Shown here in pieces: positions 33,959-51,867 of a stretch of DNA of 53,635 nucleotides. Positions within the stretch are counted from its first letter, which is position 1. Every line of letters starts with the position of its first letter. Under the pieces are notes generated by a model, which saw nothing but the letters and a program-made list of their open reading frames with translations, made no database searches and had not been told where the DNA came from. A program made the position numbers and the translations under genes. The stretch lies in UHGV virus genome UHGV-1680239; one strand, given 5' to 3'. This DNA comes from a virus.

Positions 33959-33965
33959 TAGCACC

Positions 33966-34449
33966 AACCACTGCGGTGAGTAGTCTGCTCACCGCATTCG
34001 TATCCAGCTCATTATCCACTGTAGTCAGTAACAAAACCTTCCTACATATCTGCTAACCACTGTAGCGAGTAGACAGCCTTTCATTCGCATCAAACAACCA
34101 CTATGGTGAGTATTGGAGTGAGATGTCCAGCGGGTATCCACTATGGTGAGTAAGCCTTTGCTGTTTTCAGTGGATATCCACTCGCCACAGTGGATACGCT
34201 CAAAGATGAGGGCGACAACAACCACTATAGACAGTAAATTTTCCAAGATACCCAGTGACCACTAACCTCGCAGCCCTTGTTTCATCAGTGTTAGTGATCA
34301 CTAACATTTAATTCAGTATTTGCATTCTACTGCCTACAGTGGTTATCAACAGATAACGATACTCACTATAGTGGATAGCGAATTACAGATATAAGTAAGG
34401 CTCACTACAGTGGATAGTGAGCCTTACTACTAACTACAGTGGTTGGGCT
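33966..34449. repeat. iteron field downstream of repA (incA-like), about 10 copies in both orientations
   Basis: Repeated units such as AACCACTGCGGTGAGTAG, TATCCACTGTAGTCAGTAAC, AACCACTATGGTGAGTAT and their complements (CTACAGTGGATAG). Confidence 0.7.
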
Positions 34450-35503
34450 ATTTGCGAGTCTTTGCCTTGCGCAACTCTTCGAGAAGCGCCAGTTCTTCTT
34501 TACTCAACATGACCATTTTGCCTTCTTTTTCGTCAGGCACAACGTCGATAATGTCATCTTGATTCTCATCTGGGAGGCTATATTCCGTCTCATCATTATC
34601 GATTTTTGTTGATATTTGTGCCTGGCGTAACTTTGGCCGCCTATAGTGGATGACGAAGTAGACCGAGTTTCCGCGCTTAACTTCCGTGTAATCGAGATAT
34701 CCTATCTCTCGCAGCTGTTCCATAGCCTTTCTTACCGTCGCATTCTGAGTAATAGTGCGACTTGTTAGATTAAGTCTGGCGCGTAAACGGGCTAGTGATA
34801 TTGGTGCCGGATCAGGCGGCAAACTTTCAATAAAAGTATAAAGCGCCTGAGCGGATTCTTTTCTTGAGAGTTCGTTTATAGCCCGGAGTTGCAGAAGAAC
34901 CTTTTTGTCGAACTGGTAGAGTTCGAAAATCTTGGGATCTGCTTTCAGTTCGACCGTATCGTGCTTGACACTATATTTTGCCGTTTGCACAAGATGCGTT
35001 ACGTAAAACTCATCAGAGCCTTTGCTACGGAACGAGATGGTATTTGTGGCAATACGGCTTAGCGAACTGTCCAGGCGTTTGCGTAACTTCGCTGATGACC
35101 TGGCGGTCGGAATGCCACACAGCCTTACAAACTCAACGAACGGCAACGTGACAGTATCGCCAACGACCTTGTGTTTGGCAAACGCGTGGATTATTCCCAC
35201 CCACGTTTTAAAGTCGTTATCCATATCAAGCCGAAGGCCAGAGATCCTTATGTCTTCGTACCCTTCGGCTTTTGCCAGAGACAGCTGTTTGAGTTCAGCA
35301 GAGGCATCCATAGAGACCATTTGCCCCTTTCTTCCTCTGGATGTCGATTTCAGCGTCGGAACGAAGAGGCCCAGACGCATCAAAGCAACAGGCTGAACAG
35401 TGTTATTAGTGTTAGGAACCAACATAACAACTTCGCCTGTCTTTTTATCTGTTTCTGAAAATGCTTCAACGATCGCTATGTTTTTATTGCCGTTTTCGCT
35501 CAT
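34448..35503 (-). CDS. repA: iteron-binding plasmid replication initiator RepA (P1/RepFIB-like)
   Basis: 351 aa; [16 protein letters not shown] ... [25 protein letters not shown] resemble P1 RepA as I recall it; gene flanked on both sides by iterons. Confidence 0.75.
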
Positions 35504-35548
35504 TCCAAATGTCTCTTGTTATTCGACGGCTTTGGTGGCCTTTGCTGA

Positions 35549-35670
35549 TTACAGTGGATAGTAGCACTCATCACAGCGGTTATCCTACCGTCTATAGTGG
35601 TTTTTCTCCTCTCTATAGTGGTTGCTTTGCTCCCTATAGTGGATTATTCGCTCTCTATAGTGGATATCGA
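35549..35670. repeat. iteron array upstream of repA (incC-like), about 6 direct repeats with 21-bp register
   Basis: TATAGTGG cores at 35594, 35614, 35635 and 35656 (spacing 20-21 bp) plus two degenerate copies. Confidence 0.7.
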
Positions 35671-35699
35671 TCATGTCTGAAGGCAGATGGCACAACGGT

Positions 35700-35790
35700 T
35701 TGAGGTGGGCGGGGATCTTATTGGGTCTTTATGGGTCTCTTTGGTTCTCTTTGTGATCTGAATTACTGGATCGGGCCTGTGGATAAAAAT
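35700..35790. promoter_or_regulatory. GATC cluster with consensus DnaA box (origin-like segment 1)
   Basis: GATC at about 35714, 35755 and 35769; TGTGGATAA (complement TTATCCACA) at 35778-35786; AT-rich stretch and two 8/9 DnaA boxes follow to about 35930. Confidence 0.5.
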
Positions 35791-35946
35791 CAGAGGATTT
35801 CAAGAACAGGTAACTCTACTCTTCTGTGGATATTTAAGGACATAAGAATCATGACTAAGAGTAGAGTTTAAAATATATCTATGTATATCAGTATGTTAAT
35901 GAAGAATTAAGTCATTAAGTTATCCATAAAAGACAATGTGCTCTAC

Positions 35947-36050
35947 TCTCTACAGTGGATATATACAGCTCTCCAGAGTGGTTGTTTTACTCTTCATAGC
36001 GGTTATTCAGCTCTCTACAGAGGTTTCTTTGCTCTCCATAGTGGATGGCA
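35947..36050. repeat. second iteron array (5 repeats, 21-bp spacing)
   Basis: CTCTCTACAGTGGAT, CTCTCCAGAGTGGTT, TCTTCATAGCGGTT, CTCTCTACAGAGGTT, CTCTCCATAGTGGAT. Confidence 0.65.
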
Positions 36051-36085
36051 ACACCCTTTCAGACCAGTAACCGCAACGGCTAGAG

Positions 36086-36162
36086 GCGATCGGGGATCTC
36101 TTTGGATCTTCTATTTGATCTTACTTGGGATCTCTTATTTGGATCTATCCAGTGGATAACTG
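36086..36162. promoter_or_regulatory. six closely spaced GATC sites plus DnaA-box-like site (origin-like segment 2, P1 oriR-like)
   Basis: GATC at about 36088, 36095, 36105, 36117, 36129 and 36142 (roughly 7-13 bp apart); CCAGTGGATAAC (complement TTATCCACT) at 36149-36160. Confidence 0.55.
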
Positions 36163-36246
36163 GGATAAGTAAAACAGGCAAATGCAGATTAAGGTATGCC
36201 TAATGAGTTATCGTAGCATCGGCCAATAACTACTGAAAAAACGATT

Positions 36247-36891
36247 ATGGATCTAAAACGCACGCGCTGGGTTCGTCGTCTTGAGGACGGCTCCTACACT
36301 ATCGAATCAAATTCCAACCTGAATAAGCAGAAGTTACTTTGTGATATCTGCGGTATAGCGGCGAAGTGCCCGATCTACGAAACCAGAATTAAACTTGATA
36401 AGGCTGGTGTGAACTTTCATTTGAATAGTTGTATCAGGTACGTTCCATTGCTCGCATTTCGTAAACCGATCATCGGATTGGATGCGCCCTACTTCAACAC
36501 ACTCCGTTCAGGAGTAACGTGGCGAGATCGTTTATCACCAGACAAACTGATTTGCCTTGTATCCGCAGATACAGGAAAAATCATTCGTTTTGGGAAAGTA
36601 GACAAGGTTTACTCAGGCCCAGTTGACGAGATGTTGCGGAAACACAGCCGGTTTAATCACCTCTGCATGGGTGGTGAGAAAATCGAGAAGGTTGAAGAAG
36701 TGATCCGCAAATCCTACGGACACTTCCTGACCAAAGATAGCCTGCTCACTGCAATCTACATCAGACATGTAAAACGTGAGTTCGACCTTGAATACCATAG
36801 CGAAGAAGAACTGAACCTTGTCGATCCACGTCCTAAAGCTGGCGTCATAAGCATAAATGCAGCGCGTAAAAAGCCCACTGACGCGCTGTAA
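36247..36891 (+). CDS. hypothetical protein
   Basis: 214-aa ORF directly beside the origin region; no recognisable motif. Confidence 0.5.
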   Translation: MDLKRTRWVRRLEDGSYTIESNSNLNKQKLLCDICGIAAKCPIYETRIKLDKAGVNFHLNSCIRYVPLLAFRKPIIGLDAPYFNTLRSGVTWRDRLSPDKLICLVSADTGKIIRFGKVDKVYSGPVDEMLRKHSRFNHLCMGGEKIEKVEEVIRKSYGHFLTKDSLLTAIYIRHVKREFDLEYHSEEELNLVDPRPKAGVISINAARKKPTDAL

Positions 36892-37145: not shown

Positions 37146-38231
37146 ATGACTTTGCCATACGGCGTCATTTCTGACTGCCACTACCACAAATGGGATGCGT
37201 TCTCCACGACGAACGCTGAGGGGCTTAACTCCAGACTTGAAATACAGTTGGAAGCAACGAAAGAAGCAGCCATCGCCATGAAGAAGGCCGGTTGTAAGTA
37301 CATGTTGGTTGCCGGTGATACATTTCACGTCCGAGGAACTGTGTCCCCTTCTGTTTTGCATTACGTAACTGAAACGTACAAGTGGATTATCAACGAGCTT
37401 GATCTGACAGTAGTAATGCTGGCCGGTAATCACGATCTTGAAACCAACGATTCAGTATATAGCGCCAACGCAGCAGCATCGCTGAGTTCTATCGGCGTGG
37501 TAATCGTATGTGGCAAGCGCCCACACTCAATAAAAATTGGCGATGTGACTGTCCACCTGATTAGCTGGCGTAACAATCATGCGGAGCTTATCAGCGATCT
37601 GAAAGCATTACGTAAGAGCGTAGAAGGTGATAATCATGACGTTGTTATCCATACATCCATTAACAAAGCCATTCCAACAATGCCTGACGTCGGTATCGAT
37701 GCGCAGGAGTTAAAGGATATCGGCTTTCGTCTCGTGCTTAGTGGGCATTACCACAACCACAAAGAGGTCATTCCTGGAGTTATCAGTGTCGGTGCACTGA
37801 CTCATCAAAATTGGGGAGATGTTGGATCTCTGGCTGGCTACATGATCGTAAACCCGGACGGCAGTTTCAGTCACTACGAAACCAGTGCGCCTAAATTCAT
37901 TAACCTGGAAGATGATGTTGCTGATGACCAAATTCGCGGCAACTACGTGCGTTTCCGCGCCGTAATTGAGAACGATGAAGAAGGCATTAAGTACCAGAAC
38001 ATCCTCAAAACAATGGGTGCAAAAGGTGTCGTGTGCAACTTCATCCGTAAGTCATCAATGATGGAAGGTACAGCCAGCACAACTGAAACCAGCAAAATCG
38101 ATAGCCTGGGAGAGTCGGTATCTGCTTATTGCAAGATTGTCCACGATACTGACGGCGGATTTGATCTGAGCAAATTGGATATTTTGTGTCAGGAAATCCT
38201 CACCGAAGCGGAGAGTTCGGAGGCTGTGTGA
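37146..38231 (+). CDS. Mre11/SbcD-like nuclease (calcineurin-type metallophosphoesterase)
   Basis: Phosphoesterase motifs DCHYH, GDTFH, GNHD, GHYHNH in canonical order. Confidence 0.8.
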   Translation: MTLPYGVISDCHYHKWDAFSTTNAEGLNSRLEIQLEATKEAAIAMKKAGCKYMLVAGDTFHVRGTVSPSVLHYVTETYKWIINELDLTVVMLAGNHDLETNDSVYSANAAASLSSIGVVIVCGKRPHSIKIGDVTVHLISWRNNHAELISDLKALRKSVEGDNHDVVIHTSINKAIPTMPDVGIDAQELKDIGFRLVLSGHYHNHKEVIPGVISVGALTHQNWGDVGSLAGYMIVNPDGSFSHYETSAPKFINLEDDVADDQIRGNYVRFRAVIENDEEGIKYQNILKTMGAKGVVCNFIRKSSMMEGTASTTETSKIDSLGESVSAYCKIVHDTDGGFDLSKLDILCQEILTEAESSEAV

Positions 38232-38460
38232 AGCAAAGTCGTTATGGGAGCTTTCGAGACTTTGCCATCACGATGAAAAGACTTGAACGAGGCCAGACGG
38301 TGATGTTTCACAAGCCCTACCCGCCACAAGGAAATCCCGTAGCGTTTTATCTTGGAAGGTTAACAAGAAAAGGCGTATTGAGGCGCAGATCCTTCCCGGC
38401 GCATACGGAGTTCAGATTGAAAGAAGGCCAAAAGCTAACACGCGGTATCAGAGGTGTTAT

Positions 38461-40377
38461 ATGAAGTTTTTAAAGCTCCAGGTTGAGAATTTTATGGCTA
38501 TCGCCAGCGCGGAGGTCGAGTTAGATCAGCGTGGTTTAGTGCTTATTCAGGGTGTTAATAGTGATGATAGTTCCGCATCAAGTAATGGCTCTGGAAAGTC
38601 AACTCTAATGAATAGCCTGATGTGGTGTCTTTATGGCGAAACAGCTCATGGTGTGAAGGGTGACGATGTGTTGTCTACCGACCATGAAAAGAACTGTCGT
38701 GTTGCAGTAACCATCGAGGATGAAGGCAAGAGATACGCAATCATTCGTCACCGTAAACATAAAGAGTTCAAAAATCGTCTTATCGTTCGTGGTGAAGATG
38801 GCGATATGACGAAAGGCAAAGATGCGCTGACGCAGGAGTTCGTCGAGCGTCTGATCGGTGCATCTAAAGAGGTTTTCATGGCTTCCATCTATGCGAGCCA
38901 AGAAGCTATGCCAGATTTACCTGGAATGTCCGACAAAAACCTCAAAACCATCGTAGAAGAAGCCGCTGGCGTTGACAGACTGACACGCGCCTACGCTATT
39001 GCTCGTGAGCGAGCTAATGCAGCTGCCGCACGTATGGATGTGGTTAAAACCAAATTGGAGTCGACAATCTCGACCATTGAGGCAACACAGTCAGAAATTG
39101 AGTCAGCGAAAGCCTCCTCTGAATCATGGGAGCAAGAGCGTTCTAAACGTTATGACGATGCCCTGGCTGGGCTGGCCAGTGCCGAAGTTGAGTTAACGGA
39201 AGTTGAACTTGAGATCCGCACTCTTCCCGAACAGATACGTGATACCGAGAAGGCAATCGAAAATGAGCGCAAAAAGTTAGCCTCAAAAGAAGAACATGAC
39301 GCCAAGTTGCTCAAAGTTCGTGGTGCGATAACTGATATTCGGGCAAGCATCAAAGCTACAGAAAATAGTCAGGCTGATGCAATGACCCGCGCGCGTAATT
39401 TTAAGACCAAAGCAGAAGAGGTTGGTACTAAAGTGGGATCACCATGCCCTACTTGTGGCAAAGCCTACTGCGAAGAAGATCTATCAACGGTGAAGGAGAG
39501 TTTCATTGAACAAGCACGTCAGGAAATTGGTCAGGCTAAGACACTTGCAGAGGCAATGGCTAAACACAAAACGAATCTTGAGAAAGCGTTAAGCATTGAG
39601 TCTGCCCTTGTTAAAACGACACCTGATGTAACGGCTATCATTGCCCGGATTGAAGAGCTTACGAAACAACTCTCATCTTTGCGTCATCGTGAGAAGGAGG
39701 TTGTTGCTATTGAGTCTCTTGTGACTCGTGCTCGTACTGAGGTCGATCGTATATCAAAAGAGATTAATCCGTTTATTGCTCTTATCGCCAGACACGAAGA
39801 TAACCTGGTATCCAGTAAGTCTACCTTCAAGTCCTTAAAAGATGAGTTGAAGGCTATTCAGGAACAAACGTTGCTATTGGAAAAAGCTCGTCAGGTCTAC
39901 TCTCCTGCCGGGGTGCGTTCTCATATTTTGACGTCTGTTACGCCTTTCCTGAATACACTCACAGCCGAATATCTCAATACGTTGTCTGACGGGAACATTA
40001 CTGCTGAGTGGTCGACGATGGATGTCACTAAAAAAGGTGAGTATCGCGACAAATTCAACATTAGTGTGCAGAAGAAAGGTTCAAGTAAGTCGTTCCAAAC
40101 CCTCTCTGGTGGTGAGAAGCGGAAGGTTCGCATTGCGTGTTCTTTGGCATTGCAGGATCTGGTTAGTAACCGGGCGAGTAAAAACATCGATTTGTTTATC
40201 GGCGACGAAATTGACGATGCACTCGATACAGCCGGTCTTGAACGCCTCATGGGTATTCTGGAGTCCAAAGCTCGCGAGCGAGGTACTGTGCTGATTATCT
40301 CCCATAAAGAGATGAAGTCATGGTTCAGGGAAACTATTACGCTGGAAGTTAAAGAGGGGCGCAGCTATGTCGTTTAA
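38461..40377 (+). CDS. SbcC/Rad50-like ATPase
   Basis: N-terminal Walker A GSGKSTLMNSLMWCLYG, long coiled-coil with CPTCGK zinc hook, signature LSGGEKRKV and Walker B LFIGDEIDDALD. Confidence 0.8.
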   Translation: MKFLKLQVENFMAIASAEVELDQRGLVLIQGVNSDDSSASSNGSGKSTLMNSLMWCLYGETAHGVKGDDVLSTDHEKNCRVAVTIEDEGKRYAIIRHRKHKEFKNRLIVRGEDGDMTKGKDALTQEFVERLIGASKEVFMASIYASQEAMPDLPGMSDKNLKTIVEEAAGVDRLTRAYAIARERANAAAARMDVVKTKLESTISTIEATQSEIESAKASSESWEQERSKRYDDALAGLASAEVELTEVELEIRTLPEQIRDTEKAIENERKKLASKEEHDAKLLKVRGAITDIRASIKATENSQADAMTRARNFKTKAEEVGTKVGSPCPTCGKAYCEEDLSTVKESFIEQARQEIGQAKTLAEAMAKHKTNLEKALSIESALVKTTPDVTAIIARIEELTKQLSSLRHREKEVVAIESLVTRARTEVDRISKEINPFIALIARHEDNLVSSKSTFKSLKDELKAIQEQTLLLEKARQVYSPAGVRSHILTSVTPFLNTLTAEYLNTLSDGNITAEWSTMDVTKKGEYRDKFNISVQKKGSSKSFQTLSGGEKRKVRIACSLALQDLVSNRASKNIDLFIGDEIDDALDTAGLERLMGILESKARERGTVLIISHKEMKSWFRETITLEVKEGRSYVV

Positions 40378-51273: not shown

Positions 51274-51867
51274 ATGATTGCAGCCGAAAAAATCAAACAG
51301 CGAAAGCGCGACAACTCTCTTCGTGACCTCTGGAGAACACCTGACTGGCTGTTTTCTGCCATTCAACGTTATCTTGGGGTGACATTTGATGTTGACGTTG
51401 CCTGCAACAAGGACAATGCAAAGCTGCCTAATTTCATAGGCGTTGAGCGTGATGCTTTGAAATCTGAATGGGGACAGCCAGGTACAATTGCCTTCCTCAA
51501 TCCCCCCTACTCCAAAATCTCCCCCTGGATTGATGCGGCTATACGTGAGCAGGCTCGCGGAGTTACAACAGTGATGCTAATTCCTCAATCCCTAGATACA
51601 AAGTGGTATGAGCGTGCAACAGAGTGTGCGAATGAGACGATTATTCTGTCTGGTGGCCGCGTAGCGTTTGTCGAGCCTGACGTCAATCTGGGTCAGGTAG
51701 AAGTAAACATCAACCCAGGTGGCAGTATGCTCGTTGTTTTTCGAGGATTCTGTCAGGACGCTGGGCACTCTATAAGCAAGATCCCTTTGGACGTCATGAA
51801 AAGTCTGGGAGGGTATGATCCTGCGAATGTGATCAGGAAAAAAAGACCATCAAAGAAGGCTGCTTAG
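51274..51867 (+). CDS. phage-type DNA N6-adenine methyltransferase (Dam-like)
   Basis: Catalytic NPPY within FLNPPYS; N-terminal WRTPDWLF typical of small phage Dam-family enzymes. Confidence 0.8.
   Translation: MIAAEKIKQRKRDNSLRDLWRTPDWLFSAIQRYLGVTFDVDVACNKDNAKLPNFIGVERDALKSEWGQPGTIAFLNPPYSKISPWIDAAIREQARGVTTVMLIPQSLDTKWYERATECANETIILSGGRVAFVEPDVNLGQVEVNINPGGSMLVVFRGFCQDAGHSISKIPLDVMKSLGGYDPANVIRKKRPSKKAA

Follow-up and report, generated by a model that had tools for sequence, protein, structure and literature searches.

A P1/RepFIB-type replicon with a tandem duplication of its origin core in the phage-plasmid Cyrano and related plasmids

The region upstream of the initiator gene repA in the virus genome UHGV-1680239 is, by its sequence, a P1/RepFIB-type replicon in which the origin core is doubled in tandem. 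This layout is conserved over a clade of RepFIB-related replicons that includes phage-plasmids as well as ordinary plasmids, and the comparative data favour asymmetric roles for the two copies over two equivalent origins. We put at about 0.5 the probability that the copy farther from repA (distal) is a Dam/SeqA-gated origin and the copy next to repA (proximal) mainly a repA operator and control array, a reading built on sequence comparison and on analogy with characterised plasmids.

The stretch of DNA that was analysed (the window) is 53,635 nucleotides long, and 901 bases around its origin region are 99.9% identical to Escherichia phage Cyrano, the same element as the SSU5-like phage-plasmid pLF82 from E. 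coli LF82. Over its full length, the origin stretch also shares about 82% identity with Salmonella phage SSU5, Yersinia pestis pMT1 and plasmids of Salmonella and Enterobacter. With a repA product about 91% identical in amino acids and a colinear repA-ASCH intergenic region, the Cyrano replicon belongs to the SSU5/pMT1/pHCM2-type phage-plasmids. The gene adjoining the modules was identified as repA in the original prediction, and the open reading frame at 34448-35503 bears this out: its product matches the Pfam domains Rep3_N (42.2 bits, cut-off 22.4) and Rep3_C (22.5 bits, cut-off 21.1) and is 48.7% identical to P1 RepA, about 63% to the RepFIB RepA of pO157 and 91% to RepA of pMT1 and SSU5. 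Because repA lies on the minus strand and the next gene, which takes its ASCH name from the Cyrano record, on the plus strand, the duplicated modules fall in the repA-ASCH intergenic region. The features of the region, in window coordinates, are as follows.

33964-34446, six iterons on each strand: incA-like control field of 12 iterons, irregular spacing of 20-110 bp (weight matrix)
34448-35503, minus strand: repA, Rep_3-family initiator, 351 aa (ORF list and Pfam)
34635-34653, plus strand: lone iteron within the repA coding region, 13.5 bits (weight matrix)
35543-35667, plus strand: proximal iteron array, six copies, spacing 22, 21, 21, 21, 21 (weight matrix)
35668-35711: proximal GC-rich spacer, GC 52-53%, aligns with the GC-rich spacer of P1 oriR
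35712-35773: proximal heptamer-type repeats, three GATC and three degenerate units
35778-35786, minus strand: proximal DnaA box, TTATCCACA, perfect
35796-35943: AT-rich inter-module spacer, GC 20-23% at 35840-35930, with two DnaA-like boxes
35944-36048, plus strand: distal iteron array, five copies, spacing 23, 21, 21, 21 (weight matrix)
36049-36087: distal GC-rich spacer (GC profile and alignment)
36088-36146: distal GATC repeat array, six Dam sites at 36088, 36095, 36105, 36117, 36129 and 36142
36151-36159, minus strand: distal DnaA box, TTATCCACT, one mismatch, followed by a decayed second box
36247-36891, plus strand: ASCH-domain gene

Genes for SbcD-like and SbcC-like nucleases lie just past the ASCH gene (37146-40377). 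The gene order Cra-like, repA, ASCH, SbcCD is common to Cyrano, SSU5, pMT1 and Klebsiella elements, and the insertions between ASCH and sbcD differ in pMT1 versus SSU5. Small open reading frames over the repeats, such as one of 73 aa at 35938-36159, were treated as spurious because they are made of iteron and heptamer repeats.

In the direction of repA, each block consists of a DnaA box, heptamer-type repeats, a GC-rich spacer and phased iterons. The alignment of the two blocks begins at the first iteron and extends about 25 bp further than the DnaA box, with one extra iteron and one extra 10-bp unit in block 1 (the proximal one); the blocks are about 65-70% alike, and the spacing between the tandem copies is about 380-400 bp. 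A joint alignment of both Cyrano blocks with P1 oriR, the RepFIB origin of pO157 and the one origin of a Klebsiella SSU5-like plasmid showed homology at the base level across DnaA box, repeats and spacer. The two copies are thus paralogous. The original prediction had described two tandem modules with the same grammar upstream of repA and had called for alignment of the blocks to each other and to P1/RepFIB oriR; homology emerged from both comparisons. Its statement that P1 has one such unit also agrees with the annotated P1 record, in which a single oriR combines a DnaA site with five Dam sites and five incC iterons.

We consider it extremely improbable that the repeat is an artefact of assembly or a chance similarity without meaning. 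The three proximal GATC sites alone do lie within chance expectation, but iteron scores are far over background and the copies, only about 65-70% alike, are too diverged for a repeat that was collapsed or expanded. The layout is moreover unchanged over hundreds of independent assemblies and many genera, so the collapsed repeat that had been raised as a possible refutation is excluded.

Iterons were sought over the whole 53.6-kb window with a weight matrix of 19 nt that was derived from the upstream repeats. Because a matrix in strict 21-bp register was blurred by a register shift of 1-2 bp in block 2, the search was anchored on the core CTAYAGTGG. The predicted arrays in 21-bp register stood up in both blocks, with six proximal and five distal copies, all 11 facing one way; Tandem Repeats Finder and a repeat finder also reported 21-bp arrays at 35591-35667 and 35946-36044. 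The proximal array lies directly at the repA start, from -164 to -39 relative to the gene, and the only array of single-module relatives occupies the same repA-relative position. Downstream of repA the matrix found the 12 further iterons of the incA-like field, which score 17.7-23.9 bits, were absent from the training set and lie where the Cyrano record has no annotated gene (33964-34446). Apart from a lone copy within repA, no further iteron of at least 11 bits was found anywhere in the window with this matrix. The lone copy is located about 190 bp before the stop codon, and an equivalent copy is present in the Rahnella plasmid (locus L007, 2448-2466).

Both upstream arrays fit the independent consensus of the downstream iterons alike (19.2 versus 18.4 bits). 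This equal fit indicates that the upstream arrays share one predicted iteron specificity and that one RepA should recognise all three arrays, and so should serve both origin copies.

The clustering of GATC sites that had been predicted for each block was borne out for the distal block but not for the proximal one. The distal block carries six GATC in 58 bp (36088-36145) and is the sole spot in the window with at least four GATC per 60 bp; when GATC sites were placed at random, any cluster of at least five arose in 2.65% of simulations. The proximal block has three true GATC (35714, 35755 and 35769), which by themselves are not beyond chance, and three degenerate units, GGGTCT at 35723 and 35733 and GGTTCT at 35743. 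Together these form a 10-11-bp repeat series that can be aligned with the distal series, the heptamer-type repeats being units of 10-13 bp in the two copies. Where GATCC is expected, the decayed proximal units read GAACC and GACCC in Cyrano and Rahnella, and GTTCC in Pantoea and Xenorhabdus. Elsewhere in the window, three GATC fall inside 60 bp only near 51780.

A DnaA box was confirmed for each block. The proximal one, TGTGGATAA at 35778-35786, is the sole perfect TTATNCACA within the window, and the distal one, AGTGGATAA at 36151-36159, has one mismatch to TTATNCACA. Two more boxes with one mismatch (35825-35833 and 35920-35928) lie in the inter-module spacer, as had been described for an AT-rich separator with two further DnaA-like boxes, and its GC content falls to 20-23%. 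This gives four boxes per 750 bp, against 0.73 expected. Other lineages also carry a DnaA box beside the distal iterons on the side of the inter-module spacer, and two tandem boxes occupy the position of the distal box in P1 and in the Klebsiella and PhiR41_1 relatives. In the AT-rich spacer, TATCAGTATGTTA at 35886-35898 fits the IHF consensus WATCARNNNNTTR without a mismatch and is not conserved in pMT1 or SSU5.

The original prediction had called the duplication unexpected. It is no peculiarity of this element, and the layout is old and conserved across the clade. We retrieved from PLSDB 338 plasmids matching the intergenic region at E <= 1e-30. The region was colinear, meaning over at least 80% of its length, in 335 of these plasmids, which belong to ten genera and are mostly non-mobilizable and IncFIB-typed, and no natural deletion of one module was seen among the 338. 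In an alignment of eight sequences, each module pairs with its positional counterpart in SSU5-like elements and in two ordinary plasmids. The two modules are likewise present in Rahnella aceris pPlas1, a conjugative plasmid with a RepA 76% identical to that of Cyrano, and in Pantoea vagans pPV989-167 (RepA 70% identical).

A scan for RepA with one genome per species yielded 80 loci of 62-91% identity. We defined a two-array locus as one with exactly two iteron arrays in the same orientation no more than 1 kb upstream of repA, and 42 loci of this species-representative set, Cyrano included, fitted the definition. They occur in Kluyvera, Buttiauxella, Yersinia, Rahnella, Erwinia, Pantoea, Franconibacter, Phytobacter, Cedecea and Xenorhabdus. 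Only one module is present in more distant relatives, namely Pantoea megaplasmids (RepA 65-68% identical), pO157 and P1, and the Klebsiella SSU5-like elements have a single origin. The duplication is old and independent of the phage lifestyle. A phage-specific explanation, with one plasmid origin and one lytic origin, was rejected as a general explanation because the conjugative Rahnella plasmid and Pantoea plasmids carry both modules. A neighbour-joining tree of the approximately 120-bp DnaA-GATC-spacer segments did not discriminate among one duplication, several duplications and gene conversion; a single duplication event is the simplest reading.

The two copies differ systematically in their GATC repeats. 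The distal module has five or six GATC in 41 of the 42 two-array loci and the proximal module zero to five, mostly three or four. The distal count is the higher one in 41 loci, the two counts are equal in one, and in none is the distal count lower; these loci are related and not phylogenetically independent, so the asymmetry is a pattern and not 42 separate events. Entomohabitans, Scandinavium, Pantoea KPR_PJ, Franconibacter and Tolumonas no longer have any proximal GATC repeats; iterons alone persist beside repA, whereas the distal unit is complete. The distal GATC are invariant across SSU5-like, Rahnella and Pantoea sequences, and the intervening bases vary. A reverse case was observed at a second RepA locus of a Buttiauxella metagenome-assembled genome (L060, -440 to -39 relative to repA). 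Its distal module is decayed, with three widely spaced GATC and one iteron, and its proximal module holds a perfect DnaA box, four GATC and five iterons.

Among six SSU5-like elements, the two copies were similarly constrained. Mean pairwise identity was 93% for the proximal and 92% for the distal heptamer repeats, 92% and 85% for the DnaA box with its flank, and 87% and 91% for the iterons, compared with 71% for the AT-rich spacer, the least conserved part of the region, and 77-81% for the two gene leaders. Both copies are therefore under purifying selection in these elements. The constraint on the proximal copy, held even where Dam sites are missing, lowers our confidence in any reading of it as a relic, and its conservation together with the sole perfect DnaA box argues that it is no dead relic in the SSU5-like lineage. 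The proximal repeats at 35712-35773 are 93% conserved though half of them are without Dam sites, and the same GAACC and GACCC substitutions are found in Rahnella.

At the level of sequence, the Cyrano locus shares with P1 and RepFIB every hallmark except one. It has a Rep_3-family initiator homologous to the RepA of P1 and RepFIB, about five direct iterons set two turns (21 bp) apart just upstream of repA, DnaA box(es) on the outer side of the origin and a second iteron field downstream of repA (incA or E-K type). About five GATC heptamers with a GC-rich spacer are present in full in the distal copy and in part in the proximal one (three of six repeats). However, P1/RepFIB replicons have one origin core and Cyrano has two, and with two paralogous cores it is best regarded as a variant of this type rather than a plain member. 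The order in P1 is the same, from DnaA box(es) through five Dam heptamers, GC-rich spacer and five 21-bp iterons to repA and downstream control iterons. P1 differs in having one core instead of two in tandem, five iterons upstream and nine downstream of repA (six plus five and 12 in Cyrano) and a different iteron sequence, and the proximal Cyrano core keeps just three of six Dam sites. In the annotated P1 record the repA promoter, PrepA, lies inside the incC iterons next to repA, and the nine incA iterons follow downstream.

The RepFIB replicons of P307, F and pO157 have the closest characterised initiator (about 63% identical), and PLSDB types the Cyrano relatives as IncFIB. As in Cyrano, 21-bp iterons flank repA, with the upstream set linked to the origin and the downstream set to control (PMC11983097). 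The pO157 RepFIB likewise has a DnaA box, five GATC, iterons and repA. RepFIB differs from Cyrano in its single upstream module and in its iteron sequence, and the pO157 iterons reach just 11-13.5 bits with the Cyrano matrix.

In R6K (alpha, beta and gamma) and RK2, one initiator serves several site clusters or origins per plasmid. The distant R6K origins have one iteron or half of one and need the gamma array as their enhancer, and the extra oriV cluster of RK2 contains iterons only. Both Cyrano modules differ in being complete, paralogous origin cores, with five or six iterons, a DnaA box and heptamers each, so an organisation of the R6K type does not fit. In function, the closest parallel to an origin that has a control array beside it is chromosome II of V. 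cholerae, in which ori2-min, a P1-like iteron origin, has a second set of initiator sites beside it, ori2-inc (PMC6090056). Many ori2-inc sites contain GATC, and they regulate initiation by titration and handcuffing (PMC6090056). The likeness has limits: RctB and its sites are unrelated to those of Cyrano, the control region is no duplicate of the whole core and the 39-mers have no counterpart in Cyrano. In iteron origins generally, an opening region lies next to phased iterons and DnaA sites, and the DnaA sites of P1 are movable (PMC5043065).

The original prediction had offered separate origins or an extra copy-number control locus as possible meanings of the duplication. We regard the distal copy as the favoured candidate for the opening site because the full feature set needed by P1 oriR is kept there. 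RepA on the five phased iterons of the distal core (35944-36159) and DnaA at the flanking box(es) would open the Dam-methylated heptamers, and SeqA would sequester the core once it has fired. The GATC of the P1 core reportedly must be methylated and are bound by SeqA; in the P1 origin it is the hemimethylated core GATC that bind SeqA. Also in favour of a distal origin, the single origin of the Klebsiella and PhiR41_1 elements has a GATC and DnaA part homologous to the distal copy of Cyrano. The proximal copy (35543-35786), with a partly decayed opening element, would be mainly an operator that represses repA, and its six RepA sites may titrate RepA or pair (handcuff) with the origin and the downstream field. 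The incA-like field of 12 iterons would complete the replicon.

The expectation that the proximal array represses repA follows from its position abutting the gene, by analogy with PrepA inside incC in P1 and with RepFIB, in which the upstream iterons are tied to both origin and autoregulation and the downstream ones to control (PMC11983097). A promoter scan gave no convincing conserved sigma-70 promoter inside the proximal iterons, and the operator role thus rests on analogy. The matches obtained were weak and not conserved (TCGATA-16-AATAAT in the last proximal iteron and TTAACA-16-TATATT in the AT-rich spacer), and a copy of the P1 -10 hexamer, TAGGAT, is present between the fourth and fifth proximal iterons, with no credible -35. 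Three further observations speak against an operator role for the proximal copy and an origin role for the distal one. In the six SSU5-like elements the proximal heptamers and DnaA box are conserved as well as the distal ones, the P1 core itself tolerates one non-GATC repeat (AGGTCC) and the Buttiauxella locus decays the other way.

Some of these observations would suit two working origins, both opened by RepA and DnaA and either redundant or condition-dependent, the main alternative, which we hold to be possible but rather unlikely. Both modules have a DnaA box, periodic heptamer-type repeats, a GC-rich spacer and a full phased array, their repeat regions are equally conserved in SSU5-like elements, and the 338 plasmids include no one-module deletion. 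Fewer proximal Dam sites would then mean less sequestration by SeqA or less need for methylation. Decay in opposite directions, in L060 on the one hand and in L032, L034 and L045 on the other, is as expected of duplicates that were once redundant. The proximal loss of GATC is, however, systematic and in one direction (41 of 42 loci), and several lineages have dropped the proximal opening element and kept the distal one. Single GATC mutations moreover inactivate the P1 core. For two origins, finally, Cyrano has a higher copy number than P1. Its measured value, 5.5 per cell (PMC9928086), may be related to the duplication.

The reverse assignment, in which the proximal copy is the origin, as oriR abuts repA in P1 and RepFIB, and the distal copy controls incompatibility or copy number by titration or handcuffing, seems improbable to us. 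The proximal array does lie at the same distance from repA, -143 to -39, as the sole array of single-module relatives, and the copy holds the only perfect DnaA box of the window. Extra iteron clusters also have precedents as control elements, in the additional oriV iterons of RK2 and in ori2-inc of V. cholerae (PMC6090056). But it is the distal copy that conserves the DnaA box and five or six Dam heptamers, which are lost proximally, and the single-origin SSU5-like relatives use a homologue of the distal GATC and DnaA segment. A titration locus needs neither a DnaA box nor Dam heptamers, and the reverse assignment therefore fits poorly.

It is conceivable, and again improbable in our view, that the two copies work as two gears of one origin, in which the Dam-rich distal copy is sequestered by SeqA and fires once per cell cycle and the proximal copy fires without full methylation or escapes sequestration. 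If so, one RepA could drive either tight maintenance or a relaxed multi-copy replication, the latter for example on entry into a new or dam-poor host or at induction.

The assignment of the origin to the distal copy and of operator and control functions to the proximal copy would, if correct, be a natural subfunctionalisation of a replication origin and would change the design of copy number, incompatibility and curing cassettes for this group of replicons. In the curing of FIB replicons the choice of iteron set matters (PMC11983097). The replicon maintains the Yersinia pestis virulence plasmid pMT1, Salmonella Typhi pHCM2-type plasmids, the widespread SSU5-like phage-plasmids of E. coli, Enterobacter, Citrobacter and Salmonella, and many plasmids of Pantoea, Erwinia and Rahnella. 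Full-text literature searches, whose coverage did not extend to the original pMT1 sequence papers (Lindler 1998, Hu 1998), where an earlier mention is possible, returned no description of a duplicated origin for pMT1, pHCM2, SSU5 or related replicons. The proximal copies, with Dam sites going from six to three to none, and the one reverse case form a natural series with which the role of the Dam heptamers in P1-type origins can be probed.

A replicon swap was observed among the SSU5-like phage-plasmids, in which the gene neighbours are unchanged in Klebsiella pKPHS1-like elements and in E. coli PhiR41_1. Their Rep is only 50-53% identical to that of Cyrano and their iterons (ACCGCTGACAGCATAC) are unrelated, while a segment with the GATC repeats, tandem DnaA box and ASCH leader is 75-79% identical to the distal copy of Cyrano and adjoins the same ASCH gene (36058-36300 in the window, 3975-4200 in L004 and 4000-4220 in L005). 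The GC-rich spacer that separates the GATC repeats from the iterons contains the breakpoint of the swap.
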